Source: a virus (Duplodnaviria > Heunggongvirae > Uroviricota > Caudoviricetes). Taken from it: a DNA stretch of 64,000 bases. The position numbers and the translations under genes are program-made. The notes beneath the pieces are model-generated. The model saw only the letters and a program-made list of their open reading frames with translations. It was not told where the DNA came from and did not search any database. The DNA is taken from IMG/VR virus record IMGVR_UViG_2744054962_000001; one strand, written 5' to 3'. Shown piece by piece: positions 1-64,000 of this stretch; positions within the stretch are counted from its first letter, which is position 1; each line of letters begins with the position of its first letter.

Positions 1-14
1 AGTACATCGTAGAC

Positions 15-3000
15 ATGGCGCAAAATGCGCCGTTCGCGATGCAGGCGTTAACAGATTCCTTCGTGAAGTTTCGTTCTGCTGGCTTAGATCCAACCGATGG
101 TTCTCTGAAGGCGCTGGTGGACTCCGTTGCTCGTTTTGGTGGTGATAGTGAGCTGTTGAAACGTGCGGCTGTGGCCGTTCAGCAGATGTCCGGTAAGGGC
201 GTTGTGTCAATGGAAGAGCTACGTCAGCAATTAGGTGAAGCCGTTCCTAACGCGATGCAGGCAATGGCAGACGCCGCAGGCATCACTATGGGGGAACTGA
301 CTAAAGCCGTTGCCAGCGGTACGGTTGAGGCAAAACAGGCGTTGTCTCTGATGTTTGTTGGTCTGCGTGCGGAGAATGAGAACGCAGCGAAAGACATGAT
401 GCAAACCTACACAGGTGCGCTGGCGCAACTTCAGACGTCATTCACGTTATTTGCTGATCGGGTTGGTCAGGCCGGATATCTGGATTCTCTATCGAAGGGG
501 ATGAAAGAACTGGCTTCAATCATGAATAGCGCCGAAGGGATTTCGTTTGCCAATTCTTTAGGCTCGGGGTTAACGACGGCAATCGATGGGTTGCGTCAGC
601 TTGCTCAATGGTTAGCAAAGAACCAAGAGCTGGTGATTAATCTCGGTAAGGTCGTGGCCGCGATGGTTGCGTTCAAACTGATGCGAGCAGGGATCATGGG
701 GGTAGTTGGCGCAGGCAGCCAGATGGTTAGCACCTTTGCCACGATGGCGACCGCCATACAGACTCCATTTAACCTCGGCGCTACAGCAGTAACCCGATTC
801 AATCGTGCGGCACGTATGGGGCTGGCTCCGATCCCCTCTCTTATTTTCGCCATCCGTGGGGCGATTACGGGGCTTAAAGGCGCTTTTGCTGGATTAACGG
901 CGTTCATTGCAGCAAACCCTATAGGGGCAGCATTTACAGTTGCCACTGTAGCTGTTGCTGGCCTAATCACGTACATGACCATGCTCCGCAGCGAAACTTC
1001 AAAGGTCGTTGACGAGATTAGGAAAATACCAGAGGCGATGACGGCGGCCAAACGTGCACAGATGGCGGAGTATAAAGCGCGTCTTGAGCAACAAATCACG
1101 CAAAAGGAACAAGAGTTAAAATCTGGCGAAAAGGTGGTTTATGGGCCGGGTATGGCCGGAACTACAGTAAAGATTAATCAGGATGAACGTAAGCGTATAG
1201 AAAATGAGCTAAATGACCTTCGTAAGAAACGCGATAAAACTACTGGGGCAATTGAACGCGGAGACATTGCTGTAGCCAAACGTCTTGCAAAAGATGCGGC
1301 AGAATCACAGATAGAGAAAATACGGGAAGAGAATAGAGACTTTGCGGCAACATTCGTGAAAGCCCGGCAGGAGGCTCTGGATAAGATCCAGAAAATCAAT
1401 GATGACGGTTCACTTTCAGATGACGAAAAGAACAAGCTATTGGCACCGTTACGTGAAACGGTAAACAAAAGCTATCTGGAGCCTGCGCAAAAACTGGTTG
1501 ATTCACTTTCTTCTCGTAAGAATGCTGTCGAGGGGCAAATAGCCACTCTTAATGATCAGCTTGAAAAAGCGAAAAAGGAAGGAAACACCGAGCAGATCAA
1601 GAAACTGCAAGGCAGTATTCGTGGTTATCAGGAGAATTTGGAAGTCGTCGCTCAGGAACTGACTCAGGCAGAGTTCGAGAGAGATAACGCTGCCAAAACT
1701 GGTAAGGGCGTAATGTCAAACCAGGGGACTGTTCTGGGGTTAGGTACAACTGATAAAGCTGCTCAGAAGGCGCTGGCGCAATATATGCGAAACCAGATGG
1801 ATTCTGCGACTTATCAACGTACTTTGCCTGACGGCACTCCGATGATGGACTTCGAAGGTAAGCCGATTATTGGGCCTAAACAACTCAAGACGCAGCTTAA
1901 TTTGCAGAAAGCATCCAGTGCCAGCTCTCTGGAGAAAATGAGCGATGAAGAGCGTGCCGCAGCCATTGCCGCACTTACTAAAGCTCGTGAACAGGATGCC
2001 GCAGCCGCCGAGAAAGCAGCCCAACGATCAGCTAATGCCTCGCAGCGTGCGGCCAAGAAAGAACAGGCAGCGCAACAGAAACTGGCGGCCGGATATCAGA
2101 AGGCTCTGGATAAAGCCGATCAGCTTATGGGGCAAATGGGTGAAAGCTCTAAGGCTACGGTATCGTTTGATCAGTCTCTTCGCGATACAACAAAATCGCT
2201 AACTGATTTGGCTAATGCGATTCCTAACGAGTTCATCACTCAAGAGATGATCGACAAGGCGAAAAAACGTCTTGAAGACCTCAAAAATGCGACACCTGAA
2301 TATCGCGAGATGTTTAATCGCCGCAATGTTGAGCAGATGATCTCCACTTGGGCACCGAAGGCGGATTCCATTATTAGTGCTGGCTATACGCCGTCTCGCG
2401 AAGATAAAGTTGCTGATTTCGAAGACACCTACAACCGCAATCTCAAAGCGTTGATAGAACTTCGTGATAAGGCGTCTGATCCTAAAGTTGTGGCGCTTTA
2501 TACAAAGAAAATCAATCAACTGATTGCTGCTGGCAATACCGCGCTTATTAAAGAGACGGGGACTGCGACGCAGAAGTTGGCACTGGAATACGAAAACCTG
2601 GCAGAGCAGATCGAAAGCACCTGGACTGATTTGTTTAGTGGCTTAACTGATGTCCTGACTGATTTCGTTATTAACGGGAAGATGAGCTTCTCCAGCCTGT
2701 CTCAGTCCATTTTGAAAGATATCACCAATATGGTCGTGAAGTCGCAAATCACGCTGCCTCTAATGAACATGTTGGGGATGGGAGCCACCGCAGCTGGTAG
2801 TTCACAGAGTGGTAATTTGCTCACCGGGGTTGCTTCCGCAGTTGCCAATCAAGGTGTGCGCATAAGCAACACTGTTAATGGCGACAAGTCGGTAGGAGAA
2901 GCCACGAAGGAGACGTCCAGTTCGGTAACTGGATTGGGGCAAACAACACAGCAGACCACCAGCGCAATTGGCACTGCAACAAATGCGATTGGTAGCTGGG

Positions 3001-3689
3001 TATCAGGGCTATTTGATAGCACTGAAGCCAAAGATGCCGAGACAAAAGCCGTGAAGGACTCCATCTTCTCGATGCAGAACCTCAGCTCTGTTACCGGCGC
3101 TCTGTCTGCCGCGTTTGCAATGCTTGGAGCTAATGCTTCCGGCTCTGGTAATAAGTGGTTGAATTTCGGCGCGACAGTTGCATCTGGTTTGGTTTCAGTA
3201 TGGGCTGGTGGTGGATTCGATGGATTGATGTCCGGTTCTTCTGGCTCAACTTCCGGGTTCAACAATCTGACCAGTTCTGCTGCCGATGGCACGAATGGTA
3301 TTCCTGCAATTCCGAAGTTTGCAAATGGTGGCATATTCGGAAAAGACGGCGTGATCCCGCTCCGGGCATACCAGAAAGGCGGTATCGCCAACTCACCTCA
3401 ATTGGCGTTGTTTGGGGAAGGCGATATGAATGAGGCGTATGTTCCATTGCCTGATGGTCGAACAATCCCTGTAACGCTCAGTACCGATGGTATGAGTGGA
3501 GGAGGAAATGTTCTTTCTCCGGTATCAATTGAGATCAACGTCCATAGTGACGGTAGCACAACTGAATCCGGCGATACAGAAAGCATATGGAACAATGCCG
3601 CTCAACGGATGAAAGCAATCGCGCTTGAGACTATCGCTCAAGAGAAACGCCCTGGCGGATCACTCAACCCAAACACTCAACGTAACTAA
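15..3689 (+). CDS. tail tape measure protein
   Basis: 1224 aa, long alpha-helical/coiled-coil body, hydrophobic segments, lambda gpH-like C-terminal region (GGIFGKDGVIPLRAYQKGGIANSPQLALFGEGDMNEAYVPLPDGRTIPV); sits immediately upstream of gpM/L/K/I/J-like genes. Confidence 0.85.
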   Translation: MAQNAPFAMQALTDSFVKFRSAGLDPTDGSLKALVDSVARFGGDSELLKRAAVAVQQMSGKGVVSMEELRQQLGEAVPNAMQAMADAAGITMGELTKAVASGTVEAKQALSLMFVGLRAENENAAKDMMQTYTGALAQLQTSFTLFADRVGQAGYLDSLSKGMKELASIMNSAEGISFANSLGSGLTTAIDGLRQLAQWLAKNQELVINLGKVVAAMVAFKLMRAGIMGVVGAGSQMVSTFATMATAIQTPFNLGATAVTRFNRAARMGLAPIPSLIFAIRGAITGLKGAFAGLTAFIAANPIGAAFTVATVAVAGLITYMTMLRSETSKVVDEIRKIPEAMTAAKRAQMAEYKARLEQQITQKEQELKSGEKVVYGPGMAGTTVKINQDERKRIENELNDLRKKRDKTTGAIERGDIAVAKRLAKDAAESQIEKIREENRDFAATFVKARQEALDKIQKINDDGSLSDDEKNKLLAPLRETVNKSYLEPAQKLVDSLSSRKNAVEGQIATLNDQLEKAKKEGNTEQIKKLQGSIRGYQENLEVVAQELTQAEFERDNAAKTGKGVMSNQGTVLGLGTTDKAAQKALAQYMRNQMDSATYQRTLPDGTPMMDFEGKPIIGPKQLKTQLNLQKASSASSLEKMSDEERAAAIAALTKAREQDAAAAEKAAQRSANASQRAAKKEQAAQQKLAAGYQKALDKADQLMGQMGESSKATVSFDQSLRDTTKSLTDLANAIPNEFITQEMIDKAKKRLEDLKNATPEYREMFNRRNVEQMISTWAPKADSIISAGYTPSREDKVADFEDTYNRNLKALIELRDKASDPKVVALYTKKINQLIAAGNTALIKETGTATQKLALEYENLAEQIESTWTDLFSGLTDVLTDFVINGKMSFSSLSQSILKDITNMVVKSQITLPLMNMLGMGATAAGSSQSGNLLTGVASAVANQGVRISNTVNGDKSVGEATKETSSSVTGLGQTTQQTTSAIGTATNAIGSWVSGLFDSTEAKDAETKAVKDSIFSMQNLSSVTGALSAAFAMLGANASGSGNKWLNFGATVASGLVSVWAGGGFDGLMSGSSGSTSGFNNLTSSAADGTNGIPAIPKFANGGIFGKDGVIPLRAYQKGGIANSPQLALFGEGDMNEAYVPLPDGRTIPVTLSTDGMSGGGNVLSPVSIEINVHSDGSTTESGDTESIWNNAAQRMKAIALETIAQEKRPGGSLNPNTQRN

Positions 3690-3731: not shown

Positions 3732-4067
3732 ATGGAAAGACAAACGTTTAATTGGTATCCAGATTACGAATCTGAAAAAAGCGTAAAACCGAATGTAACG
3801 GTACTTAATTTTGGTGATGACTACGAGCAGCGACAGGCTCAAGGTCTTAATCGTATTAAAGAAGAATGGTCGTTAACCTTTACCAGATCATACAACGAAA
3901 TTAATGCAATCGATGACTTCCTGACTGAGCGAGCAGGCGTTGAGTCGTTCTATTGGGTTAATCCAAGAGGAAAACGGATTGTAGTTGTATGTGACAGTCA
4001 TACGGTCAAGCGATATCAGGGGTACTGTGTCTTAACTGCTACATTCAGACAAGTATTTGAGGCTTAA
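3732..4067 (+). CDS. minor tail protein (lambda gpM-like)
   Basis: 111 aa, position directly after tape measure and before gpL-like gene; size and synteny as in lambda. Confidence 0.55.
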   Translation: MERQTFNWYPDYESEKSVKPNVTVLNFGDDYEQRQAQGLNRIKEEWSLTFTRSYNEINAIDDFLTERAGVESFYWVNPRGKRIVVVCDSHTVKRYQGYCVLTATFRQVFEA

Positions 4068-4116
4068 GTATCTGGATAAGTAAGTACTAATTTACTATCA
4101 TTGTGGCGCTGACAGG

Positions 4117-4848
4117 ATGCTAGCGCCTACTTATTTCAAGGATGAAACAATGGGAATTAAAGCTGATATTCAGAGCTTATCTCCCTCTGCACTCATTGAG
4201 TTGTTCGTACTGGATATGTCGAACACAACTTCAGGGGGGAAGTTATTCTTCCACGCCGGAACAAACGAACTGATGCAACCGGTCGTCTGGCAAGGAGTGA
4301 CATACGAGCCGTGGCCAATCAAAGCATCAGGCTTTGACAAAACTGGCCAGGGAACGTTGCCACGTCCAAAAATTCAGGTATCGAACTTTGCCGGAACCGT
4401 CTCTGCGGAAGTTCAGGCGAACGACGATCTTGTTGGCTGCCGCATTATTCGCAAGATGACGCTGGCTCGCTTCCTCGATGCCGTTAATTTTAAAGACGGC
4501 AACCCAACAGCAGATCCAAACCAACATTTCCCGGATGAAATGTGGTTTATCGAACAGAAAACTCTCGAAACTCATCAGGTTGTCGAGTTTGAATTGTCCA
4601 GTGTGTTCGATTTGATGGGGGTGCAACTGCCGTATCGTCAGATCATTAAAAACACCTGCCCGTGGAAATACCGAGGGCCAGAATGCGGCTATACCGGTCC
4701 ATATTTCGACAAAAATAACCAGCAGACGTCTATGTCTGGTGCTGATTACTGCACAAAACGTTATGACGCCTGTAATGCGCGTCGGAATTATTTTGCCAAC
4801 GGAGTGATCCATTTTGGCGGGTTTATTGGAGCTACGCGATATGGGTAA
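4117..4848 (+). CDS. minor tail protein L-like
   Basis: 243 aa; C-terminal Cys cluster CPWKYRGPECGY...YCTKRYDAC as in lambda gpL; synteny. Confidence 0.65.
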   Translation: MLAPTYFKDETMGIKADIQSLSPSALIELFVLDMSNTTSGGKLFFHAGTNELMQPVVWQGVTYEPWPIKASGFDKTGQGTLPRPKIQVSNFAGTVSAEVQANDDLVGCRIIRKMTLARFLDAVNFKDGNPTADPNQHFPDEMWFIEQKTLETHQVVEFELSSVFDLMGVQLPYRQIIKNTCPWKYRGPECGYTGPYFDKNNQQTSMSGADYCTKRYDACNARRNYFANGVIHFGGFIGATRYG

Positions 4849-5638
4849 TAAAGCAATCCCTGAGCTTGGCTCTGATGTTATGCAGCAAATCTATCTCTGC
4901 GCCATAAATCGCTACCCTAATGAAGCGTGTGGCTTTCTGGTGAGAACTAATGGCGACAAATATCGCTTTATGGAAGCGCGAAATGTTTCGGAGAACCCGC
5001 AGAACACTTTTGTAATGCACGTTGACGACATTATGGCGGCAGAGGATGCGGGTGATGTTATCGCAATCTGGCATTCACATACTGATGAATCAGCAGAAGC
5101 ATCTGATGCCGATCGTGCAGGCTGCGAAGCGACGGAAGTTCCGTGGATGATTCTGGCTATTCGCAAGAATGTTGAGGGAGATGCCCCTTTCCATTTTAGC
5201 GAGATGAATGTGATCACTCCTGATGGTTTCGAAATGCCATACCTGGGTAGACCGTATGTATTTGGCGTATTCGATTGCTGGATGTTGTGTCGGGACTATT
5301 TGAAGCGTGAGTTTAACGTCGAGCTTAACCCGAACGCACACCTGCATATTCCATCGTGGTACACCGGCGATAACGACATTCTCGACCAGAACTACCGAAA
5401 CGAGGGATTGGTACGGCTTGCGCCTGGAACAAAGCCTCAACGTGGGGACGTCTTCTTTATTCAATACGGGAAAATGCCAGATCACTGCGCGGTTTATATC
5501 GGCGATGGAATGATTCTTCATCACCAGATCGACCGTCTTAGTTGTCGTGCTTATTACGGCGGAATGTATCAGAAACATACGACGCATCACTTGCGTCACA
5601 GAGACTTGCTCAAGGGAGATGAGACGTGTCTGAGTTAG
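4841..5638 (+). CDS. tail assembly protein K-like (MPN/JAMM plus NlpC/P60-like)
   Basis: EACGFLV and WHSHTDE (JAMM-type HxH) motifs, later Cys/His peptidase-like region; ORF track starts at 4814 but the ATG at 4841 overlapping the gpL stop is the likelier start. Confidence 0.6.
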   Translation: MGNKAIPELGSDVMQQIYLCAINRYPNEACGFLVRTNGDKYRFMEARNVSENPQNTFVMHVDDIMAAEDAGDVIAIWHSHTDESAEASDADRAGCEATEVPWMILAIRKNVEGDAPFHFSEMNVITPDGFEMPYLGRPYVFGVFDCWMLCRDYLKREFNVELNPNAHLHIPSWYTGDNDILDQNYRNEGLVRLAPGTKPQRGDVFFIQYGKMPDHCAVYIGDGMILHHQIDRLSCRAYYGGMYQKHTTHHLRHRDLLKGDETCLS

Positions 5639-6219
5639 TTCATGTGCAGCTTGGCGGCCCTATGGCCAAACATTTTGGCCGCCACTGGCATCTAAAGGTG
5701 CGCAATACAAAACAGGCTCTGGATTTAATTGAGGCCAACAAGCCTGGGTTTAAAGCATGGATGAAGCGCAATATCAAAACCTATGACCGTTACCACATCC
5801 AGATCACCAATAAACAGGGCCACAAGTGGTCTGTTGACGAAAGTGAATATCAGATGATGGGGCAGTCTGACAACATTGCCAAAATCCGCATTACACCTGT
5901 TCCGCGAGGAAGCGGTGGATCTGCTTTTGGGTGGTTTCAGACGGTAGTAGGGGCCGCTTTGTTGGTTGTATCGGCGGTAGTGATGCCTGCTTTAGCACCT
6001 CTCGGTTTGTCACTGATGATGGGCGGCATATCACAAATCATATCGCCGCAAGCCACTAACGAAAGTGTGAGACAGGCAGATAACTCGAACTCTTATTATT
6101 TCGACGGCCCTCAAAATACAGAAAACCAGGGCAACCCAGTACAACTTATCTATGGCGAGGAAATTCTGGTTGGCTCACAGGTTGTGAGTTCTTCAATCAC
6201 GATTGACCAGCTAATGTAA
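5626..6219 (+). CDS. tail assembly protein I-like
   Basis: 197 aa with hydrophobic central segment; position between K-like and J-like genes. Confidence 0.45.
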   Translation: MSELVHVQLGGPMAKHFGRHWHLKVRNTKQALDLIEANKPGFKAWMKRNIKTYDRYHIQITNKQGHKWSVDESEYQMMGQSDNIAKIRITPVPRGSGGSAFGWFQTVVGAALLVVSAVVMPALAPLGLSLMMGGISQIISPQATNESVRQADNSNSYYFDGPQNTENQGNPVQLIYGEEILVGSQVVSSSITIDQLM

Positions 6220-6230: not shown

Positions 6231-9200
6231 TTGAACATGGAACAGTTCAAGAAGAAAAAGCTACCGCTGTTTATTGCCGGTGCGGGTGGTAAAAAAAGCA
6301 GCAAAAGCTCCAGCCGTACACCGGTTGAAGCCGACGATACCGTAAATTCTCGTGCAATGGCCGCTATCCTCGATCTTCTTGGGGAAGGGGTAATTGGCGG
6401 CTTAGTAAATGGCGCAAGATCTATTTTTATCGACGATCTGCCGATTGTAAATGAAGACGGTTCCTCCAACTTCAGCGGAATCACATGGGATTTTCGCGAC
6501 GGTTCACAAGACCAGACTCCAATGTCTGGCTTTGATTTCGTTGAAACGCCTAAATCCGTCAATATCCAGTTAAAAAAAACACATTATGTAACGGTTTCAA
6601 TCGATAACGATGAAGCTGATCGGGTTCGTGTCATCATGAAGTTTCCTTCTTTGCGAAGCATAGATAAAAAAACTGGTGACACGAACGGTACGACTGTTGA
6701 GTACAAGTTCCAGATAGCAAATGGCGACTCAACATTTGTAGATGTGGTCGCTGAAGGTGAAAAAAGCGTTGGCATTAAGCTAACAGCAAAGAAGACCGGC
6801 GTTTATTACCGTAGCTATGAGCTGAAGCTGCCTAAGCCTGGACGAGCATACAAGGTTCGTGTGGTCCGTATTACCGATGATAACAGCAGCCAGTATCTCT
6901 ATAACGATACATGGGTGGACTCAATAGGTGAGATTGTAGATACACCGATGAACTACCCAAACTCTGTGCTGGTGGGTCTGAAGGTTAATTCTGAGCAGTT
7001 TGGTAGCACCATGCCATCTCGTTCGTATTTGGTACGTGGATTAAAAATTCGCGTGCCGTCAAACTACAACGAGGCCAGCAACACTTATGATGGTGTATGG
7101 GATGGCACTTTTAAGCTGTTGTCTTCTTCAAACCCCGCGTGGATTCTCTTTGATTTGCTGACCAATGCTCGATATGGCCTTGGTCAGTATGTGTCGGAAT
7201 CTATGATTGACCTTGGCCAGTTGTACCAGATTGGTCGATATTGTGACGAAGAGGTCGATGATGGCTTTGGTGGCAAAGAGAAACGCTTTGCAATCAATAC
7301 GCAGATCACCAGTCGACAGGACGCATACCGGCTAATTCAGGATATTGCCGGAGCATTCCGCGGCATGGTGTTTTGGGCTGGTGGGATGGTTAACATCATG
7401 CAGGATAGCCCATCAGATCCGGTAATGATGTTTACCAACTCTAACGTCAAAGATGGATTGTTTACCTATAAAGGTTCTGCGCGTAAAGATCGCCCATCCG
7501 TTGCGCTCGTAACCTACAACAACAAGGAGGACGGTTATAAGCAAAACATCGAGTACGTTGAAGATCAGGACGCAATGCGCCGTTATGGTGAGCGTAAGAC
7601 AGAAGTCGTAGCATTTGGCTGTACAAGCCGAGGCCAGGCCCACCGAGTTGGTTTATGGCTTTTGTATACAGCCAGAATGGAGTCGGATGTAATTACATTT
7701 ACTGCCGGCTTAGATGCGTCATTCCTGATGCCTGGTGAAACCGTTCTGATTCAGAACAAATATCGCGCAGGCAAACGTAACTCAGGTCGAATTGTGGCGT
7801 TTACCAAAAACAGCGTCACACTCGATGCGCCTGTGTCGTTAGCCAAAGGCGGCTGCTTTATTCGAATACTGAATCAGGAAGGCAAAATCGTTGAACGCGA
7901 TGTTCTTGAAACTGGCGAAAATATAACAAAAGTTACGTTTTCAAAAGCCCTGTCTTCTGCTGAAACGCCTGTTTTGAACGGCGTCTGGACTATTACAGAA
8001 CCAGATCTCGAACCTATGCGCGTTCGCATTGTTAACATAGCACAGGGGGAAACGCCGGGTAGCTTTGACATCACCGCTGTTGAGAACAATCCGTCTAAAT
8101 ATGAGGCGATCGATAATGGTGCAACGCTTATCCCGCAGAATACGACGGTATTGGACCCGACTTATTCCAAGCCGTCTAATTTGCAAATCACTGAAGGGAC
8201 TTATCTCTCAAGCCCGGGCAACCTGTCAGTAAAACTGACTGCAACATGGGAAGGGAAATCTCCAGAGTATTGGATCAGTTGGCGACGTTCTGATGCAAAC
8301 AATGTATCGAACTGGCAATCGGCGCGTGTAACCGAAGAGCAATACGAAATCGTTAATGTCGCGGAGAATGGACGCTACGACTTCCAGCTGTATGCGGTTT
8401 CATTCAACGGTAAAAAAACAGAGATTATCAGTACCGTTTATCAGGTGCTGGGCACAATGACACCGCCAGATGCCCCAACGTCATTAACGGCCGTTGGAGA
8501 CTATCGTAATGTGATACTGAATTGGGTTAATCCAGATTCGGTAGACCTTGATCACATTAATGTTTACGCATCCCAGACCAACAATCTGGATACAGCGAAA
8601 CTGATCGCAGAGTCTGCAAGCACCACCTTTACACATGCTGGTCTTGGGGATAGCGAAACGTGGTATTACTGGGTTCGTGCGTCAAACAAGCGCGGTATGT
8701 TGAGTCCTCCGAACTCAAACTTGGGTACAGAGGCGACGACTCGCGATGTGCTGTCGTTCCTGACAGGCAAAATTACGTCTTCTGAACTTGGCCAGACTTT
8801 ACTTGAGGAAATCGACTCAAAAGTATCTCAGGAGGCGGTGGATTCCATCTATCAACAGATGGAAGAAAGTCTGAAAATCCTCGATGACAAATTTACAGAT
8901 GCCGATCAGCGGCTTGAAGAAGCTCAAAACAATCTTAAAACGGAAGTTTCCGGTACTGTCAGCAAGGTGGAAGACGCACTTAAGGAGGTTGCAAACTCTA
9001 ACGCTGCCTTAATTCAGTTGCAGGAAACTGTATCAGAGCAGGGTAAAGCTGTAGCTGGAGCTGTTGAGGCGGCAAATGCAGCACTTGACAATTCATCGGC
9101 TTTAATTGCGGAGGAGCGTGAAGCACGAGTTGAGGGTGACTTGGCAAACGCGAAAGAAATCGAGGCGATGAAGTCAACTGTAGATAGCAGTTTAGCCACC

Positions 9201-13156: not shown

Positions 13157-13165
13157 GGGAGACAA

Positions 13166-15376: not shown

Positions 15377-15377
15377 T

Positions 15378-17942: not shown

Positions 17943-17945
17943 TAA

Positions 17946-47764: not shown

Positions 47765-47780
47765 CTCCCCTAAAAAGTTC

Positions 47781-47805
47781 AGGCGTCCAGTTGGACGCCT
47801 TTTTT
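47781..47805 (+). terminator. rho-independent terminator (AGGCGTCC hairpin family)
   Basis: AGGCGTCCA-gt-TGGACGCCT then TTTTT. Confidence 0.7.
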
Positions 47806-47855
47806 ATCGCAATTATCTTATTAAGAAAACAATTTGTTTAAAAGGATAAGAAAAC

Positions 47856-49860: not shown

Positions 49861-49863
49861 GGG

Positions 49864-50919: not shown

Positions 50920-50939
50920 TCCAAATGTCTCTTGTTATT

Positions 50940-52853: not shown

Positions 52854-53357
52854 TTAATCACAAGTCGTTTTGCCCGTGCCGTCTGGGTACACGATTGATT
52901 CGCACGACTTGCCATTCAAGAAGCTGTAGCTGCGAATAGTACCGTCCGGATCGCGTTCTGTGTAAGACTCCAGCTTCTTCGGATCAGCGTTCTTACGGCG
53001 CACTTCTTTCAGCTCATATTGGGCCTTGTACATCTCCTTGTAGGCTTCCTCTATGCGTTTCATTTTGATCTCCTTTGCCTCTTTGCTGCCCAGATAAGCG
53101 GCCATTTCAAGATCACAGTTGAACCTGATTTTTGGGAATGAAGGCGCGTATCTACCCATGACTTTGGTTAAATCATTGTCGTTAGAGACATAATAGGCAT
53201 GGCTTCCACACAATTTGTCGGCTCTGTCTTGGGCAATTGCTACGCTTGAAGTGGAGTAAATATCAACGTACCCGCCAGCTGACTTTTCATCTTGAGGTGG
53301 TTTTGGTACGCATCCGATCAGAGCAATGGCCATCGTCCCTATAATTACGCGTTTCAC
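52854..53357 (-). CDS. hypothetical lipoprotein
   Basis: signal peptide with lipobox LIGC; 167 aa. Confidence 0.4.
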   Translation of the reverse strand: MKRVIIGTMAIALIGCVPKPPQDEKSAGGYVDIYSTSSVAIAQDRADKLCGSHAYYVSNDNDLTKVMGRYAPSFPKIRFNCDLEMAAYLGSKEAKEIKMKRIEEAYKEMYKAQYELKEVRRKNADPKKLESYTERDPDGTIRSYSFLNGKSCESIVYPDGTGKTTCD

Positions 53358-53583
53358 CGTCAGTTCTCCTTTTTCGTTTGGTTGTCATCATTAAGTGACT
53401 GCGATTATAGAGTGGCTTGTAACATCTAGAAGTCTTTGCTGTCCATAAAAATAGGTATTCACTTACCTATTAATTTGCCATAATCATGTGTCTGTGAACA
53501 TTCTTAATGGCCGTGTTATCTGGATTGTTCGCCTCTCAAACACACTTAATATCTGTATCAAAATAACCACAAAGGAAAAACAC

Positions 53584-54669: not shown

Positions 54670-54898
54670 GGCAAAGTCGTTATGGGAGCTTTCGAGACTT
54701 TGCCATCACGATGAAAAGACTTGAACGAGGCCAGACGGTGATGTTTCACAAGCCCTACCCGCCACAAGGAAATCCCGTAGCGTTTTATCTTGGAAGGTTA
54801 ACCAGAAAAGGCGTATTGAGACGCAGATCCTTCCCGGCGCATACGGAGTTCAGATTGAAAGAAGGTCAAAAGCTAACACACGGTATCAAAGGTGTTAT

Positions 54899-56815: not shown

Positions 56816-57548
56816 ATTAAGCCGCTCGCAGTTTTTGCAGGTATTTGCAGTGATGCAGTCGATAAAACTGATCAATGGGCATACTTCCAATGGTGCGGCT
56901 CCACGTATTCTGTGGGGCAGCAACAATATTGACGGAGTACAATTCGCCGCGTTGCTTGGTCTAATATCCGAGACGCCATTGATGCAAAGTTTGAAATCAC
57001 TACCACCTGGATGTATTGCGCCGATCCTGATTAATCCTTTTGTTGAGGGGGGATATCTTCCCAACGTCGGGCCTGGGTTTATTGCATCCCATGAAACTGA
57101 AGATCTTAACATTAATAGCGAAGGGTTCTTTGGGGGAATGGGTGCGCATCACTGTATGGCTTTCACGAACCTTATTCGACTTGCCAATAAGCGGGTGGAT
57201 AGTTTGGCATCGCAAGGTGATGCTTTTACTGGTTTCCTTATCCAAAGGAGGGATAAAAAGTACAGTGCGGACAAACTACAGTTTGTTGGTAAGTATGGAG
57301 AAATGGTAGAAATCGAACTTCAGCTCCCTCATGTTTTAGCAAACGATAGTGCAGACAGTCGGAGGCTATTGGGCATCATGCGTCATTTCATAGCAAGTGG
57401 TGTTAAACATGCCGCAGATAAACGTGTCACGCAGGAAAATGAGTATTCAGACTTTGCAAACTATCCCCAACCAACGTTGCAAACGGCAATAGTAGCCAAT
57501 TCGTTGGAGGCGAGATTATTGGAAAACCCTATATGGGGAACATGGTAA
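56805..57548 (+). CDS. hypothetical protein
   Basis: 247 aa, coupled to sbcC-like gene. Confidence 0.3.
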   Translation: MSFKLSRSQFLQVFAVMQSIKLINGHTSNGAAPRILWGSNNIDGVQFAALLGLISETPLMQSLKSLPPGCIAPILINPFVEGGYLPNVGPGFIASHETEDLNINSEGFFGGMGAHHCMAFTNLIRLANKRVDSLASQGDAFTGFLIQRRDKKYSADKLQFVGKYGEMVEIELQLPHVLANDSADSRRLLGIMRHFIASGVKHAADKRVTQENEYSDFANYPQPTLQTAIVANSLEARLLENPIWGTW

Positions 57549-57557
57549 GGAGACTAT

Positions 57558-58127
57558 ATGAGTAAAAAAATCAGCGTAGTTGGTGTTGATCCCTCAATGA
57601 GCAACTTTGGGCTTGCTGTGGGCACTTTAGACCTTGAGACGGACGAACTTGAGATTCACGGCCTTACTCTTGTTGAGACTAAAGCGGGGAGTAACAAAAA
57701 GACCGTTCGTGTGAACAGTGACGATCTGCGCCGCGCCAGTGAAATATGGCGTGTTGCGAAGCCAATCATTGATAAGGCAAATATGGTTTTTTGTGAGCTA
57801 CCGGTTGGGAGCCAAAACTCTCGTTCGCAGACGTCTTACGGTATTTGTATCGGTGTACTTGCGTGTGTGGATAAGCCATTGATCCAGGTTACTCCAAACG
57901 AAATCAAGCATTTTGTCGGCAATAAACTTACTACATCGAAAGAAGAGATTATCCAGTGGGCTACGAAAAAACACCCTAAAGCACCGTGGCTGCGTCGTAA
58001 GCAATCTGGACAGGATGTTCTCGTGAACAAAAACGAACATTTGGCTGATGCGGTGGCTGCCATCCATACCGGTATGCAAACAGATCAGTTCCGCCAGGTG
58101 CGCGATGTTCTTAAGTCTCTCATTTGA
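57558..58127 (+). CDS. RuvC-like Holliday junction resolvase
   Basis: N-terminal VVGVDPSMSNFGLAVG and later acidic residues consistent with RNase H-fold resolvase. Confidence 0.5.
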   Translation: MSKKISVVGVDPSMSNFGLAVGTLDLETDELEIHGLTLVETKAGSNKKTVRVNSDDLRRASEIWRVAKPIIDKANMVFCELPVGSQNSRSQTSYGICIGVLACVDKPLIQVTPNEIKHFVGNKLTTSKEEIIQWATKKHPKAPWLRRKQSGQDVLVNKNEHLADAVAAIHTGMQTDQFRQVRDVLKSLI

Positions 58128-58200: not shown

Positions 58201-60516
58201 ATGATAAGCATCGTAAAACGTAACGGCCAAACAGAGCCGTTATCCGAAGAAAAATACAACCGCGTCGTAATGTATGGCGTAGAAGGCATTCGTGGTGTAA
58301 GCGCATCCGCTGTAGCAATGGGAGCTGCGGCCAGCATTTTTGATGGGATTACCACCAGCCAGTTGCATGAGGCTTTGGTTAAATCTGCCGCTGATTTGAT
58401 CTCACCAGAAGCACCAAATTACTCACAGGTGGCTGCCCGCCTGAACATTTTTAAAATCCGCAAAGATGCCTTCGGTCGTTACGACTATCCGAACTTCTAC
58501 CAACACATTGTCAAGAACGTTAACAAGGGCGTTTATGACAAGGATTTGCTGACACATTATTCGTTTGAAGAGATCGAAGAACTCGGCAATTACATTAAGC
58601 CGAAACGTGACGATCTTTTTGGCTATGCAGCTACGGTGCAGTTGCAAAGCAAATACCTCGTTCAAAACCGTGTTACTGGTGAGATTCATGAGGGGCCGCA
58701 ACATATCTATATGCTGGTAGGCATGTGTCTGTTCCAGAATTGGGAAGACGACTGCGCTGGCAAAACACGTATGGAGATGGTCAAAGGTTTCTATGACGTT
58801 ACAAGTACGTTCAAACTGTCTCTGCCCACACCAATCATGGCCGGCGTCCGTACTCCAACCCGTCAGTTCTCCAGTTGTGTGCTGATTGAGTCTGGCGATA
58901 GTCTGAAAGGGATTAGTGCAGCTTCAGCCGCAATTATCGACTACGTTTCACGTCGTGCTGGAATTGGTATTGGTTTTGGCCGTATCCGTGCGCTGGGCAG
59001 CGAGATCCGCAATGGTGAAGCCACCCATACCGGAGTTATTCCATTCCTGAAGCATTTCCAGACGGCTGTTAAATCTTGTTCGCAAGGTGGTGTTCGTGGT
59101 GGCGCAGCAACAGCGTTTTACCCGATCTGGCATCTTGAAGTTGAAAGTCTGCTGGTGGTGAAAAATAACCGTGGTATTGATGAAAACCGCGTTCGCCATC
59201 TTGATTACGGCGTCATGAGTAACCGTCTAATGTACCGTCGACTCGTCAGAAGCGAGAACATCACTCTGTTCAGCCCGCATGATGTGCCTGATATGTACGA
59301 AGCCTTCTTCACAGACCAGGAGCTGTTTGAAAAGCTGTACCATAAATACGAAGCCGATGATTCAATTCGCAAGAAGTCAGTACCTGCCATTGAGCTGTTC
59401 TCATCTCTGATGCAGGAACGAGCGTCCACGGGCCGAATTTATATTGCGAACGTCGATCATATTAACGAGCATGGCGCTTTCATTCCTGCTCTTGCACCTG
59501 TTCGCCAGTCAAACCTGTGCATGGAGATCACTCTACCCACTCGTCCACTGGCATTTACCGACGACCCGAACGGTGAGATCGCGCTATGCACTTTATCCGC
59601 TTTTAACCTCGGAGCCATCCGTTCACTGGAGTCTCTTAAAGAGGTGGCGTTCTATGCCGTTGCTGCACTGGATTCGTTACTGGATTATCAAGACTATCCG
59701 ATGGAGGCAGCCGAAGTGCCTGCCAAAGCTCGTCGTAGCTTGGGAATTGGTGTAACCAACTTTGCTTATTACCTGGCAAAGAATGGCGTTCGTTATTCTG
59801 ATACCGCTGGCAATAAACTGGTGCATGAAACGTTCGAAGCTATCCAGTATTACCTTCTTGATGCCAGCTGCCGACTTGCTGAAGCAAAAGGTGAGTGTGA
59901 CTGGTTTGAGCAGACCAAGTACGCAATTGGTCAGTTGCCGATCGACCATTACCGTTCTTCATTAGACGAAAGTGGCGAAACCAACTTTGAGTTAAAGATG
60001 CCGTGGGAAGAACTGCGTGAACGTATTGCAAAATACGGCCTTCGCAACTCCACACTGACGGCACAAATGCCATGCGAGACTTCCAGCCAGATCACTAATT
60101 CCACCAACGGCATCGAACCGCCTCGTGGACCGGTGTCGGTGAAATCTTCTAAGGACGGCATCGTTAAGATGGTCGTGCCTGAGTTTGAAAAACTGAAGGA
60201 ACAGTATGAATACCTGTGGGATATGCCGGACAACCGCGGCTATCTGACAAAGGTGGCGATCATCCAGAAGTTCTTTGACCAGGCTATTTCAGCCAATACC
60301 AACTATGACCCTTCTCGCTTTGAAGGCGATAAAGTCCCAATGATGACGCTACTGTCAGATTTGCTTCTCGCCTACAAGATGGGAGTTAAAACGCTTTACT
60401 ACCACAACACCAGAGATGGGGCAGGAAAGCGTGATGACGACGAACCGCAGAATCCACTGACGCAAGCTGTAGCCGTCGAGCCAGAAGATGAGTGCGACGG
60501 AGCCTGCAAAATCTGA
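58201..60516 (+). CDS. nrdA: ribonucleoside-diphosphate reductase alpha subunit (class Ia)
   Basis: 771 aa; N-terminal ATP-cone, conserved active-site region (SNLCMEI) and radical-transfer Tyr pair near C-terminus. Confidence 0.9.
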   Translation: MISIVKRNGQTEPLSEEKYNRVVMYGVEGIRGVSASAVAMGAAASIFDGITTSQLHEALVKSAADLISPEAPNYSQVAARLNIFKIRKDAFGRYDYPNFYQHIVKNVNKGVYDKDLLTHYSFEEIEELGNYIKPKRDDLFGYAATVQLQSKYLVQNRVTGEIHEGPQHIYMLVGMCLFQNWEDDCAGKTRMEMVKGFYDVTSTFKLSLPTPIMAGVRTPTRQFSSCVLIESGDSLKGISAASAAIIDYVSRRAGIGIGFGRIRALGSEIRNGEATHTGVIPFLKHFQTAVKSCSQGGVRGGAATAFYPIWHLEVESLLVVKNNRGIDENRVRHLDYGVMSNRLMYRRLVRSENITLFSPHDVPDMYEAFFTDQELFEKLYHKYEADDSIRKKSVPAIELFSSLMQERASTGRIYIANVDHINEHGAFIPALAPVRQSNLCMEITLPTRPLAFTDDPNGEIALCTLSAFNLGAIRSLESLKEVAFYAVAALDSLLDYQDYPMEAAEVPAKARRSLGIGVTNFAYYLAKNGVRYSDTAGNKLVHETFEAIQYYLLDASCRLAEAKGECDWFEQTKYAIGQLPIDHYRSSLDESGETNFELKMPWEELRERIAKYGLRNSTLTAQMPCETSSQITNSTNGIEPPRGPVSVKSSKDGIVKMVVPEFEKLKEQYEYLWDMPDNRGYLTKVAIIQKFFDQAISANTNYDPSRFEGDKVPMMTLLSDLLLAYKMGVKTLYYHNTRDGAGKRDDDEPQNPLTQAVAVEPEDECDGACKI

Positions 60517-60622
60517 CATATGGTGGGGGATATCCCCACCTTCTCTTTGATTTGTAAGCCTTGTTTAAACACATAAGATAACAACTTGTTTAAACGCACC
60601 AAAAAAGAAAAAGGAAAAACAC

Positions 60623-61765
60623 ATGTCATATTCAACGTTCCGTTTGGGTGCTAATGATGCAACCAAAGAGCCTATGTTCCTCGGACAATCTGTCAACGTG
60701 GCTCGTTACGATCAACAAAAATACCGTGATTTTGAAAAGTTGATTGAACGTCAATTGTCTTTCTTCTGGCGGCCGGAAGAAGTTGATATTTCGAGCGATC
60801 GCATCGACTTCAATACGAAGCTGCGGGACCACGAACGCCACATTTTCCTGAGTAATCTCCGTTATCAAACGTTGCTCGATTCAGTTCAGGGACGTAGCCC
60901 AAACGCAACTCTGCTGCCGCTTATCTCTATTCCTGAACTGGAAACGTGGGTTGAAACGTGGTCTTTCTCTGAGACTATCCATAGCCGCAGCTACACCCAC
61001 ATTATTCGTGGCATGGTGGACGATCCGAGTATTGTTTTTGACGGTATTGTTACGGATGAAGAAATCATCAACCGAGCCATCAGTATCTCTGCTGAATATG
61101 ACAGGCTTTATGGGATGACCTGCGATCGCCAGTCGTTAGGCGAGAAGGAATTTGAGCGTCTGTACGTAAATGAATATGGCTGGGAGCCATATCCTTTGCA
61201 CCGTCAGCTTTTCCGCACGTTAGTGTCCATTAATGCGCTTGAGGCGATCCGTTTCTATGTAAGTTTTGCATGTACGTTTGCCTTTGGCGAACGGAAGTTG
61301 CTTGAGGGTAACACCAAAATTATGCGCTTTATTGCCCGTGATGAAGCTCTGCATTGCGAAGGAACTGAACGCATGATCCGCTTCATGCGTACCGGTCGCG
61401 AAGGTTTATTGTGGAAAGAGATTGCTGCTGATGAAGAAAACGTCATTTACGACACCATGAAATCAGTCGCCGAACAAGAAATGAACTGGGCAGACTATCT
61501 CTTCAAAGACGGTTCGATGATTGGTTTAAACGCGGATATTCTGAAGACCTATGTAAAATACCGAACCAATCTGGCTATGAATCGTCTTGGCCTGAAGGCT
61601 TTATTTCCAGAAGTTACCACTGATCCGCTGGTCTGGATGAACAAGTGGTTGTTAACCGACACACTGCAAATTGCACCACAAGAGGCAGAGCAAAGCACAT
61701 ATCTGGTAGGTCAGATCGATTCTACCGTGGACAAGGCTTCTCTAAGCCAGTTTGCAGACCTGTAA
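60623..61765 (+). CDS. nrdB: ribonucleoside-diphosphate reductase beta subunit
   Basis: 380 aa, di-iron/tyrosyl radical ferritin-like fold motifs ([20 protein letters not shown]). Confidence 0.9.
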
Positions 61766-61842
61766 ACCGATACAAAGCATTATGTGGCCTGGCAACGCTG
61801 GGCCACAATGGATCACAAGAATTAAGAAGGAACAAAACTAGC

Positions 61843-62712
61843 ATGAACTTTACCAAACTGACTGACCACCTGAAACTTGCCACCGATCGACTCATTGGAT
61901 TTAAGCCAGAACCATATGAGTTGCATGAAGGCCATGGTGTAGCCACTGAAAGTATTTACAAGATGGTCGATCAGTTTCATGAACTCTTCCAGCATCCGAG
62001 ACGCGTTATGCCGACACCAGAGCTGCTTCGTCTCCGTGCAAGCCTGATTCATGAAGAAGCTGTAGTGGAAGGTATTCCAGCCGCAATGAATGGGGATATT
62101 GAGCAACTGCTGGATGCAATGGCCGACTTTTTATACGTTGGTGTTGGTACGATGGTCGCCATCAAAGGTGGTATTTCTACCGGCATGACCTATTACACGC
62201 AGGAACAGAGCATTGATCGCTTTATGCAGACAATTTTTGTGCCCGGTAACACTGTTTTCGATGATATGGCAATGCCATTTCAGGAAGCTCGTGAGGCGTC
62301 ATGTATGCTCGAAGAGCTGGCAGATAAACTTGAGAAGAAGACTGTTAAGGATTCTGAGCTGATTCAGGAACTGCGCCGTGTAATGAACAAAATCTATGTG
62401 GCGTGCATGATGACTTATCGACTGGCTGATTTCCTCGGTATCAATGTCGTCGAGCTGGTTGGCGAAATTCATCGGTCTAACATGACAAAATTATGGCCTG
62501 CTGATGTTGAGGAACGTCGCCAGGCTGTGGCCAACTGCAAATACGACTCTTCAGATCTGGGATTCCGCCATGCTGATGGCACCGATAAGATGATCGGTTT
62601 TCGAATTTCCGATGGAAAGATTCTGAAGTCTCCAACCTATAGTGATGTCGATTTATCCTCCTTTGTTGAGCAAGCTAAAGCCTCAGCAATGTACGGAATG
62701 ATCAAAAAATAA
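61843..62712 (+). CDS. MazG-like NTP pyrophosphohydrolase domain protein
   Basis: EEAVVEG...DIEQLLDAMADFLYV pattern (EExxE / D-rich helices); start at internal Met MNFTK with AGGAACAAAACTAGCATG context (track ORF starts 61645 overlapping nrdB). Confidence 0.4.
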   Translation: MNFTKLTDHLKLATDRLIGFKPEPYELHEGHGVATESIYKMVDQFHELFQHPRRVMPTPELLRLRASLIHEEAVVEGIPAAMNGDIEQLLDAMADFLYVGVGTMVAIKGGISTGMTYYTQEQSIDRFMQTIFVPGNTVFDDMAMPFQEAREASCMLEELADKLEKKTVKDSELIQELRRVMNKIYVACMMTYRLADFLGINVVELVGEIHRSNMTKLWPADVEERRQAVANCKYDSSDLGFRHADGTDKMIGFRISDGKILKSPTYSDVDLSSFVEQAKASAMYGMIKK

Positions 62713-62779
62713 TTGTAGGTAGTTATCTATCTGTGTATATTTAACATGCGTAATAAAACTCTGGAATGACTATTCGTTT

Positions 62780-62806
62780 TGGTGGCCTATGGCCACCATT
62801 TTTTTA
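62780..62806 (+). terminator. rho-independent terminator
   Basis: TGGTGGCC-tat-GGCCACCA then TTTTTTT. Confidence 0.7.
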
Positions 62807-62851
62807 TCTGTCTGGTCTTGTTCTCTCAATGAATGTAAACTCACACGATGA

Positions 62852-62867
62852 ATAAGTAATTACTTAT
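62852..62867. promoter_or_regulatory. perfect 16-bp palindrome ATAAGTAATTACTTAT upstream of thyA-like gene (recurrent element family)
   Basis: self-complementary; same arm sequence family as other intergenic palindromes in the window. Confidence 0.5.
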
Positions 62868-62882
62868 CTTTGTGAGGTTTTT

Positions 62883-63986
62883 GTGTCACTCCTTTTGAAT
62901 CGAGAGCATACGAACGGTCAGGTAACAAACGCATCGTATGCAAAAGTTATTGAGACGGTGCTTAAAAGCGGCGTGCAGGCTGATGATCGCACAGGCACTG
63001 GTACTTTAAGCACCTGCTACGTTCCCTCTTACTACATGCTTACTGGTGGGACTGTGCCGCTTATTTCTGGAAAGGCGGTAAATCTTAAGCCACTACTTGT
63101 CGAACTTGAGTGGTATCTGAAAGGCACGGGCAACATCCAATTTCTCAAGGATAACGGCGTTAAGATTTGGGATGCATGGGCCGATGAGAATGGCGATTTG
63201 GGGCCGGTTTACGGTAAGCAGTGGCGTCGATGGGAAGATACCCGCATCGTGAGCCATAGTGAATATCTGAGCAAGATCGCTACTTTCCGTGAACGCGGGT
63301 ACAAAGTCGAGGGATACCTGGGTATCAGTGAAGATCGCGTAGTGCTGTCCCGTGAAATCGATCAGCTACAGCGTATTGTCGATACACTGCGCACGAACCC
63401 TACCGATCGTCGCATCATGCTTAACGCATGGAACGTAGGCGAGCTTGAGGATATGAAACTGCCACCTTGCCACTTTGTCTTCTCTTTGTGGAGTCGTGAG
63501 CTGGATTTTGAAACCCGTTTAACGATGGCAACTGACATTGGTCTTCAACACAGTCGCCTCGGTTACGAGTCTATCTACACCAAGATGCTATACGATCTGG
63601 ATATGGACGGCAGTGTTACTGAAGCTGAACTGGATGAACTTGGAATCCCCAAACGCATCCTCAACTCCTGCCTCGTACAGCGTAGCGTAGACACTTTTGT
63701 TGGTATGCCATTCAATATTGCTGGCTATGGCATTCTCACTCATTTTCTCGCGAAGATTACGGGTCACATGGCCGGTGCATTTGTGCATTTTGGCTTTGAC
63801 GTGCATTTGTACAACAACCACATGGAAGGTGTGTGTGAGCTAATGAAACGACAGGCTCCAGAGCATTCAGATCCGGTCGTTATTTTCCCTCATGAATGGT
63901 CAGAGTTGGATGATTTCAAATGGGACGAGGTTTTAATTCTTGGCTATGACCCTCTACCGTGGATCAAGGTTCCAGTGGCGGTGTGA
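62883..63986 (+). CDS. thyA: thymidylate synthase (ThyA family) with two insertions
   Basis: DRTGTGT, GDLGPVYGKQWR, RRIMLNAWNVGELEDMKLPPCH (catalytic Cys), PFNIAGY, HLYNNH conserved; extra segments after WRRWED and after the catalytic Cys relative to E. coli ThyA; GTG start. Confidence 0.8.
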   Translation: MSLLLNREHTNGQVTNASYAKVIETVLKSGVQADDRTGTGTLSTCYVPSYYMLTGGTVPLISGKAVNLKPLLVELEWYLKGTGNIQFLKDNGVKIWDAWADENGDLGPVYGKQWRRWEDTRIVSHSEYLSKIATFRERGYKVEGYLGISEDRVVLSREIDQLQRIVDTLRTNPTDRRIMLNAWNVGELEDMKLPPCHFVFSLWSRELDFETRLTMATDIGLQHSRLGYESIYTKMLYDLDMDGSVTEAELDELGIPKRILNSCLVQRSVDTFVGMPFNIAGYGILTHFLAKITGHMAGAFVHFGFDVHLYNNHMEGVCELMKRQAPEHSDPVVIFPHEWSELDDFKWDEVLILGYDPLPWIKVPVAV

Positions 63987-64000
63987 TATGGCAAGAGGTA

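Follow-up and report, generated by a model that had tools for sequence, protein, structure and literature searches.

A 64-kb Caudoviricetes sequence joining siphovirus and plasmid maintenance genes, very probably part of an SSU5-supergroup phage-plasmid of the E. coli pSLy3/Cyrano lineage

Layout and identity of the element

The window analysed here (positions 1-64,000, the whole stretch of DNA taken from IMG/VR record IMGVR_UViG_2744054962_000001, Caudoviricetes) holds, in one uninterrupted 64 kb, siphovirus tail genes, lysis genes, a phage replisome and nucleotide-metabolism genes, together with a replicon made up of RepA, iterons and a DnaA box, a ParA gene, a GNAT/TacA pair, a tyrosine recombinase gene and three transfer RNA (tRNA) genes. 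Its left edge lies inside the tape-measure gene and its right edge just past the thymidylate synthase gene. The guanine-plus-cytosine (GC) content is ~46% and even across the window, the cumulative GC skew climbs steadily, and nearly all long open reading frames (ORFs) lie on the + strand. Structural and lysis genes thus share one 64-kb segment with plasmid replication and partition genes, the combination used to recognise phage-plasmids by Pfeifer et al. 2021 (PMC7969092). The original prediction, made from the sequence, had placed phage and plasmid genes on one segment, and every gene class that it listed was recovered by family scans (Pfam, PHROGs and NCBIfam). The window very probably represents ~58% of a ~110-kb temperate siphovirus that is kept as a low-copy circular plasmid and belongs to the SSU5 supergroup, within the E. 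coli pSLy3/Cyrano(pLF82) lineage.

The 56 window ORFs were compared gene by gene with SSU5 (JQ965645), pHCM2 (NC_003385), Cyrano/pLF82 (OV696614 / NC_011917) and pSLy3 (CP015915); homologues in SSU5 and pHCM2 were counted where the match covered at least half of the ORF length. Colinear homologues were found for 44 of the 56 ORFs in SSU5 and for 46 in pHCM2, at a mean amino-acid identity of 82-83%, and 78-80% of the window nucleotides align with these two genomes at ~79% identity. A one-directional score resembling weighted gene repertoire relatedness (wGRR), computed over the 56 window ORFs, was 0.65 for SSU5 and 0.68 for pHCM2, with all matches colinear; published gene-repertoire values between communities are 0.23-0.59 (PMC7969092). 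Homology was colinear throughout, and both relatedness and synteny place the window in the SSU5 supergroup, in keeping with the proposed resemblance to SSU5 and pHCM2. The narrower assignment to the SSU5_pHCM2 group proper did not stand: the window is nearer to pSLy3 and Cyrano than to SSU5 or pHCM2, its host, as for the pSLy3 type, is E. coli, and it falls in the pSLy3/Cyrano lineage of that species. The largest phage-plasmid supergroup is the one that comprises SSU5, pHCM2 and their relatives (PMC7969092); its E. coli members are typed pSLy3 (PMC12977533, PMC11652158), and pSLy3-type elements occur in thousands of clinical isolates (bioRxiv 10.1101/2025.09.12.675607).

Megablast matches at 97-99% identity are E. 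coli plasmids of 106-120 kb that are circular, non-mobilizable and typed IncFIB; many of them reach 98-99% over 25-64 kb of the window. At least 80% of positions 25001-50000, the stretch that holds phage-type genes and repA, is covered by each of 104 plasmid records, and a draft contig of 110,151 bp (GCA_001562705.1) is 99.96% identical to the window across 22,388 bases. A protein-identity look-up returned proteins identical to the window tail fibre only from contigs of 20-200 kb. To the right of the window end, relatives carry further phage-plasmid genes, among them those for dihydrofolate reductase (DHFR), a 3'-5' exonuclease and Dam. By analogy with the circular 106-120 kb plasmids, and given the lack of host genes in the window and the near-identical segment on the 110,151-bp contig, the window element would be extrachromosomal. 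Virion production and plasmid lysogeny, which have been shown for Cyrano and for the phage isolate SSU5, would likewise be expected of it; Cyrano is a plasmid of ~5.5 copies per cell that forms siphovirus particles, and ciprofloxacin induces it 39-fold (PMC9928086). The element is of an already known kind and nearly of known sequence, and its classification adds nothing new.

Plasmid replicon and maintenance genes

The repA gene (49864-50919, - strand) encodes a replication initiator of the Rep3 family (Pfam Rep3_N 1.3e-10, Rep3_C) that is 91-92% identical to its SSU5 and pHCM2 counterparts, and relatives of this replicon are typed IncFIB by MOB-suite. The iteron core CTAYAGTGGWT, counted with at most one mismatch across the whole window, has 21 matches against 2.6 expected, and 18 of the 21 fall within 49471-51461, on both sides of repA. 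Upstream of the gene the iterons follow a 21-bp period. Repeat and motif searches resolved this region into origin block 1 (50965-51202), with five or six iterons at 21-bp spacing, a G/T-rich stretch that contains GATC and, at 51194-51202, the exact DnaA box TTATCCACA, and origin-like block 2 (51365-51574), with about five 21-bp iterons, a GATC-repeat stretch and a DnaA-like box TTATCCACT at 51566-51574. The repeat families D1, D8, D9 and D16 recur between the two blocks at a spacing of 360-380 bp. The blocks themselves lie ~370 bp apart, with an AT-rich stretch between them. Downstream of repA, repeat searches found about ten iteron-like repeats in both orientations (49380-49861), which we infer to be a copy-control array. 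A Rep3 initiator, directly repeated ~21-bp iterons on its upstream side, others on its downstream side and a DnaA box are the components of a RepFIB/P1-type iteron replicon, and the iteron replicon with DnaA box that had been predicted is therefore present.

The partition locus begins with a small ParA ATPase of 222 amino acids (aa; 16915-17583, + strand), which matches Pfam MipZ/AAA_31/CbiA/ParA and NCBIfam ParA_partition (1.9e-33, residues 9-213). It is a Walker-type ParA without an N-terminal helix-turn-helix (HTH), as in type Ib systems. Directly after it, and co-transcribed with it, lies the gene for a partner of 119 aa (17583-17942, + strand), the N-terminal tail of which is basic and disordered and for which no family match in Pfam, no PDB match by sequence or profile search and no Foldseek match was found. 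Residues 54-79 of the partner give a sub-threshold match to aCcr1, a ribbon-helix-helix (RHH) family, and the segment KIKSRTMSLEDEYFELLEMM...FTRSDVIRAAIFHLAE reads like strand-helix-turn-helix. From this match and from a low-confidence structure model an RHH fold is plausible; of the ParA/RHH pair proposed earlier, the ParA half is confirmed, and the RHH half is tentative. The label 'RelE/ParE toxin' that the Cyrano annotation gives to this partner looks wrong, as it has no family support.

On the opposite strand, a TacA-type RHH antitoxin (16327-16635, - strand; Pfam TacA1 8.6e-26) is followed immediately, 7 nt downstream, by a GNAT acetyltransferase toxin (15798-16319, - strand; Pfam Acetyltransf_7/_1, above cut-offs). 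This is the arrangement of TacAT/KacAT modules and bears out the predicted GNAT/RHH addiction module. The pair is annotated KacT/antitoxin in Cyrano and is absent from SSU5, pHCM2 and pSLy3.

Tyrosine recombinase, its candidate site and the LexA box

A tyrosine recombinase of 367 aa with core-binding and catalytic domains (Pfam Phage_integrase 2.9e-10) is encoded at 30322-31425 (+ strand). It had been described as Cre-like, a description that failed on sequence and on closest fold: sequence searches matched it neither to Cre nor to any other PDB chain, even at E<=10, and the best fold match of its AlphaFold2 model (predicted local distance difference test (pLDDT) 83) was lambda Int (1z1b; E 1.2e-6, template modelling score ~0.6), with Tn1549 Int and Xer proteins next in the ranking and Cre at rank 32 (E 1.4e-2). 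The layout, on the other hand, is that of a Cre-type system: a two-domain enzyme whose gene adjoins a short candidate site, an inverted repeat with 13-bp arms and an asymmetric spacer. The protein has no arm-binding domain, and its N-terminus is modelled as helical; in sequences distantly related to it, the P4-type arm-binding domain PF13356 is present. The recombinase is a lambda/P4-type enzyme cut down to its core-binding and catalytic domains, which may work like Cre without being a member of the Cre family.

The candidate recombination site of this enzyme is an inverted repeat of perfect 13-bp arms around a 7-bp spacer, AATGATTCCATAC-CTACTAT-GTATGGAATCATT (30191-30223; hereafter the 13-7-13 site), 99 nt upstream of the recombinase ATG. 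Among 69 viral contigs with a recombinase at least 84% identical to that of the window, the arms are invariant and the spacer occurs in six variants. Where the recombinase is 56-60% identical, the arms are unchanged or nearly so, the spacers are others and the LexA box is missing. At 44-47% identity (Xenorhabdus and Providencia), the site reads (AT)GACTCCAGAC-N7-GTCTGGAGTC(AT), with the same two substitutions in both arms and the 7-bp spacing kept. Such symmetric co-variation of the arms with the adjoining enzyme is what the binding site of the recombinase would show; the repeat may instead be an operator for another dimeric protein. Integron-like capture of cassettes at the site was rejected, since the adjacent variable slot ends ~20 bp to the left of the site and not inside the spacer. 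The searchable literature yielded no occurrence of the site sequence and no account of the site, LexA box and half-sites described below.

Between the site and the gene lies a predicted LexA (SOS) box, TACTGTTTACTTATACAGTA (30276-30295), which matches the consensus at 17 of 20 positions and ends 27 nt before the recombinase ATG; just one other CTGT-N8-ACAG site exists in the 64 kb. The box abuts a weak putative promoter (TTGATC at 30248-30253, TAATAT at 30271-30276), and in 66 of the 69 related loci it is found at -42 to -46, with a varying centre. The motif is of the kind that marks the LexA regulon, and binding by LexA is predicted. A second strong LexA box was seen outside the window, upstream of a small conserved gene in SSU5 (SSU5_103; box at SSU5 38009-38028) and of its pHCM2 homologue (21118-21137), which makes this gene a candidate for the SOS-controlled induction gene of the group.

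Overlapping the end of the recombinase gene on the other strand is a 128-aa HTH regulator (31420-31806, - strand; weak Pfam HTH_19, phrog_8 transcriptional regulator 1.3e-11), the Cyrano homologue of which, CYRAN_45, is the putative lysogeny repressor from the Cyrano annotation and expression (PMC9928086). The order recombinase, divergent small regulator, CobT, CobS, DnaE is kept in all these elements with a related recombinase, including the Xenorhabdus and Providencia relatives. The range of the recombinase module thus extends from phage-plasmids of E. coli to those of Xenorhabdus and Providencia. Recombinases identical to that of the window, with phage-plasmid neighbours, were also seen on four contigs >1 Mb (including CP043541.1, 5.57 Mb, and a 2.7-Mb contig) and on 36 contigs of 0.2-1 Mb. 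Such cases may reflect integration or co-integration, or joins made during assembly.

Dispersed half-sites

The exact 13-nt arm occurs five times in the 64 kb, twice in the site and three times elsewhere, and each of the extra copies is followed by ATC. One (27035-27047, + strand) continues with ATCTCAT and supplies the start codon of a small membrane ORF (MIPYIS...); the next (28047-28059, + strand) continues with ATCACAT and is non-coding, upstream of the tRNA genes; and the last (36242-36254, - strand) is an exact half-site inside codons 85-89 of dnaE. The copies at 27035 and 36242 have 20 identical bases in inverted orientation, 9.2 kb apart. An alignment of 42 distinct dnaE sequences varies in 35% of its columns, and the dnaE half-site forms an island of 14 invariant nucleotides in it. 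All lineages with ATTCCATAC arms have this copy, SSU5 included; it is absent from the dnaE of Xenorhabdus and Providencia, whose protein differs in the variable loop where the half-site is embedded. A chance repeat was rejected as an explanation on the strength of five exact copies in 64 kb and their conservation in relatives. Shufflon-like exchange or deletion between the copies at 27035 and 28047 was also rejected, as loci with a single site merely carry a point mutation in the other copy, and no deletion or inversion products of the half-sites were found in related loci.

These elements (the 13-7-13 site, the LexA box, the arm-less lambda-Int-type recombinase and the divergent HTH gene) could together form an undescribed SOS-triggered site-specific recombination system, in which the half-sites would act as functional partners in programmed rearrangement, conditional integration or gene control, beyond dimer resolution. 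We put this forward tentatively and regard it as doubtful.

Proposed working of the element

The following mechanism was put together from what is known of the gene families and of Cyrano and SSU5, the two relatives studied by experiment. During lysogeny, RepA and host DnaA would fire the iteron origin, the downstream iterons would limit copy number, ParA and its partner would segregate the copies, and the toxin-antitoxin pair would kill cells that lose the plasmid, while the HTH repressor would hold the lytic genes off. DNA damage would trigger the lytic cycle, with amplification of the genome by the phage replisome, packaging into siphovirus particles and lysis. The recombinase would be de-repressed by LexA cleavage and most likely acts on the 13-7-13 site that adjoins its gene upstream; the simplest role for it would be SOS-boosted multimer resolution.

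Evidence against this reading and alternative explanations

Several points weigh against the window being part of a complete and functional phage-plasmid. The head, portal and terminase genes lie outside the window, and the completeness of the virion module is taken from relatives; circularity and copy number are likewise established for relatives, the window being known from its sequence alone. The 'holin' of the lysis cassette is a candidate with one C-terminal transmembrane segment and no family support. The AlphaFold2 monomer of the ParA partner, with helices at 48-60 and 70-84, is of low confidence (pLDDT 63), and no convincing centromere repeat array, as a type Ib system would have, was found near parA in 16500-18100. 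The recombinase is inessential for phage growth, because SSU5 is without the whole recombinase block. Finally, proteins identical to the window recombinase and ThyA occur on a few contigs >1 Mb, and the element may occasionally integrate or co-integrate in other strains.

The position of the head genes would also suit a domesticated or defective 'plasmid with phage genes', which has kept plasmid replication and makes no infectious particles. pHCM2 and several E. coli relatives were long labelled cryptic plasmids, one pSLy3-type element was not found packaged in virions, and a Klebsiella relative is reported as not acting like an intact prophage (PMC8969562). We nevertheless consider a defective element distinctly unlikely: all tail, lysis and replication ORFs of the window are full length when compared with plaque-forming SSU5 (coverage ~1.0), no insertion sequences (IS) or pseudogenes were seen in the window, and Cyrano, which is 97% identical, yields particles.

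The large contigs, on which recombinase- and ThyA-identical proteins are found in a few cases of 0.2 to >1 Mb (such as the 5.57-Mb CP043541.1), and the lambda-Int-like recombinase that the element encodes would both fit a chromosomally integrated prophage in which the plasmid-like genes are relics. The window has no host genes anywhere in its 64 kb, its best matches are all plasmid records, and its replicon, ParA and toxin-antitoxin genes are intact. The presence of a near-identical copy on a contig of 110 kb, the size of the whole element, makes chromosomal integration very unlikely for the window molecule. Nor does anything beyond the co-occurrence of the two gene sets speak for an assembly chimera of a lytic or temperate phage with an IncFIB plasmid, which is exceedingly improbable. 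The order in which repA separates the recombination module from SbcCD, and parA the lysis genes from the replication genes, is found in 104 plasmid records and in SSU5, pHCM2, Cyrano and pSLy3; a misjoin is excluded because the same arrangement, with parA and repA at the same positions, is present in more than 100 closed plasmids and in SSU5. The two findings named beforehand as fatal to the original prediction, flanking host genes in a chromosome and a misjoined replicon, thus both came out negative, the best matches being circular plasmids and the same order recurring in the DNA of the phage isolate SSU5. A low-copy plasmid prophage of the pSLy3/Cyrano lineage remains the preferred reading.

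Tail and lysis genes

The tape-measure gene (1-3689, + strand), the 5' end of which is cut by the window start, is 86% identical to SSU5_015; the Cyrano tape-measure protein has 1525 aa, and the families TMP_3 and Tape_meas_lam_C match the full-length gene in related contigs. It is followed by the tail tip genes M, L, K (JAB/NlpC-P60) and I (3732-6219, + strand), at 86-96% amino-acid identity to SSU5 and pHCM2, for which Pfam Phage_min_tail, Phage_tail_L, Prok-JAB and NLPC_P60 were matched on identical genes in related contigs, and by the tail tip/host-specificity protein J (6231-10397, + strand; Pfam Phage_Tail_Tip 6.9e-42, Phage-tail_3 1.3e-35, FNIII-A_GpJ 1.3e-29). The segment 10491-14165 (+ strand) encodes a side tail fibre of 795 aa and three small ORFs, one with a Peptidase_S74 chaperone domain (Pfam); of the fibre, the N-terminus alone matches SSU5 and pHCM2. 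The distal fibre module (10976-14122) is ~95% identical to unrelated 45-kb lambdoid E. coli phages (PhiR49_1 etc.) and is absent from SSU5, pHCM2 and Cyrano. This distribution points to a recent exchange of a putative host-range cassette between the phage-plasmid and integrative prophages.

The lysis cassette (14335-15765, + strand; 94-95% identity to SSU5) consists of the holin candidate, an endolysin (phrog_873, 1.6e-88), an Rz-like i-spanin (PHROGs, 7e-25) and an overlapping Rz1-type lipoprotein ORF (~15580-15765), in which a lipobox was read in the sequence.

Replication, recombination and nucleotide-metabolism genes

Replication genes begin with a DnaB-like helicase and a DnaG-type primase (20126-22729, + strand; Pfam DnaB_C 3.6e-13, DNAG_N, Toprim_2; 87-93% identity to SSU5 and pHCM2), followed by an ATP-dependent DNA ligase (25342-26664, + strand; Pfam DNA_ligase_A_M 5e-13). 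Three tRNA genes, tRNA-Asn(GTT), tRNA-Thr(TGT) and tRNA-Ser(TGA) (28254-28501, + strand; ARAGORN, and three Rfam tRNA matches), precede a Gp49-family protein and a glutaredoxin (28723-29315, + strand; Pfam Phage_gp49_66 9.2e-29, Glutaredoxin 8.7e-11). Beyond the recombinase and its divergent regulator lie a CobT-like VWA protein and a CobS-like AAA_5 ATPase (32369-35808, + strand; Pfam CobT_C 3.7e-82, CobT 4.5e-27, AAA_5 2.1e-15) and a DnaE-type DNA polymerase III alpha subunit (35989-39495, + strand; Pfam PHP, DNA_pol3_alpha 9.6e-74, finger and HHH_6 domains). In a Xenorhabdus relative (11481-13802), the CobS-like AAA_5 ATPase has a LAGLIDADG domain, probably another intein, and that locus also encodes a colicin-type DNase, its immunity protein and, adjoining the recombinase, a ParE/Phd pair.

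A CspG-like cold-shock gene (39774-40192, - strand; NCBIfam CspG 1.8e-43) separates dnaE from the recombination module. Its cspA thermoregulator 5' untranslated region is complete (Rfam RF01766 187 bits), and the gene is absent from SSU5, pHCM2 and pSLy3. The recombination module itself (41447-46637, + strand) comprises a UvsY-like mediator, a gp32 single-stranded DNA-binding protein, a 5'-3' exonuclease, a small ORF and RecA with an intein (Pfam gp32 1.7e-66, 5_3_exonuc_N, RecA 3.3e-36). In RecA (44298-46637), a LAGLIDADG intein of ~421 aa splits Walker A (residues GPPSAGK before and T after the intein, which itself runs from C... to ...SHN; Pfam LAGLIDADG_3, Intein_splicing); Cyrano shares this intein, which SSU5, pHCM2 and pSLy3 lack. 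An SPFH/Band-7 protein and a DUF7238 protein follow (46934-48281, + strand; Pfam Band_7 2.6e-30, DUF7238 5.3e-38).

To the right of the replicon are SbcD- and SbcC-like nuclease subunits, an ORF of unknown function and a RuvC-like resolvase (53488-58127, + strand; Pfam Metallophos, AAA_23/SMC_N/SbcC_Walker_B; phrog_159 3e-57 for the resolvase), and then NrdA, NrdB, a MazG-like pyrophosphohydrolase and ThyA (58201-63986, + strand; Pfam Ribonuc_red_lgC 3e-131, Ribonuc_red_sm 4.4e-46, PRA-PH 2.3e-8, Thymidylat_synt 2.3e-78). The public label 'ThyX' for the Cyrano homologue of the last looks wrong, given the ThyA-family match of the window protein.

Variable slots

Two overlapping ORFs of low GC content (31-35%), predicted from transmembrane windows to encode membrane proteins, lie at 17985-19161 (+ strand); they are 32-39% identical to SSU5 and absent from pHCM2, Cyrano and pSLy3. 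The same slot holds DUF2971 in SSU5 and pHCM2 and a GIY-YIG protein in pSLy3. Ten ORFs of unknown function, this pair included, were scanned with PADLOC and gave noise-level matches only. The 184-aa protein at 29500-30054 (- strand), also of unknown function, matches phrog_28788 only; its Cyrano homologue, CYRAN_43, is the most strongly transcribed lysogen gene, 723-fold above the prophage background (PMC9928086). The cargo slot to the left of the recombinase site (29294-30172) is only 80 bp in many relatives and holds different genes on the same strand in others. A 365-aa ORF of unknown function (22731-23828, - strand) is 100% identical at the protein level to pHCM2 and 57% to SSU5 and is absent from Cyrano and pSLy3; its recent exchange is suggested because the flanking genes are only 92-98% identical to pHCM2.

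Significance

Phage-plasmids of the SSU5 supergroup have been listed from thousands of Enterobacteriaceae genomes, and the practical value of the present analysis lies in correct annotation, as such contigs are routinely filed as 'cryptic IncFIB plasmids' yet can spread genes by infection. The recombinase module, with its LexA box, co-evolving site and half-sites including the one in dnaE, suggests a link between the SOS response and site-specific recombination in a very common element, and is the only part of the window that might repay experiments.

Comparison with known systems

Cyrano is the closest of the four references. At 97% identity, 88% of the window aligns with it, and 48 of the 56 ORFs are common to both (97% amino-acid identity), including the KacT/TacA pair, the ParA pair, the tRNAs, the recombinase with its site and LexA box, the RecA intein and the RepA replicon. 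It differs in having another side tail-fibre module and a J protein of different length, and it is without the low-GC membrane ORFs (17985-19161), the 365-aa ORF (22731-23828) and the lipoprotein (52854-53357) of the window. pSLy3, the type member of the pSLy3 group, has the same backbone and order (94% nucleotide and 92% amino-acid identity over the shared parts) and the recombinase with its site and LexA box; it lacks the GNAT/TacA pair and the RecA intein and has four tRNAs, and the place of the SPFH and DUF7238 genes of the window is taken in pSLy3 by a type I restriction-modification system, IS fragments and a group II intron. SSU5 and pHCM2 have the gene order, the RepA (at the 91-92% identity given above) and the ParA pair in common with the window. 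They are clearly more distant than the E. coli lineage, are without GNAT/TacA and the RecA intein, and differ in their tail fibres; in SSU5 the whole gp49-Grx-recombinase-HTH block is missing as well.

Lambda Int and P4-type integrases are the best structural matches of the recombinase, and lambda core sites have a 7-bp central region, as does the 13-7-13 site. In contrast to these enzymes, the recombinase family is without an arm-binding domain, the element is extrachromosomal in its relatives and by analogy here, and the site has long perfect 13-bp arms. Phage P1 resembles the window in being a plasmid prophage with an iteron/DnaA-box replicon and control iterons downstream of repA. Both also encode a partition ATPase, an addiction module and a tyrosine recombinase whose gene adjoins an inverted-repeat site. 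P1 is a myovirus, whereas the window belongs to a siphovirus with a small ParA and without a P1-type ParB, and the window recombinase has no detectable Cre homology, is preceded by a LexA box and adjoins a site of 13-7-13 rather than 13-8-13.

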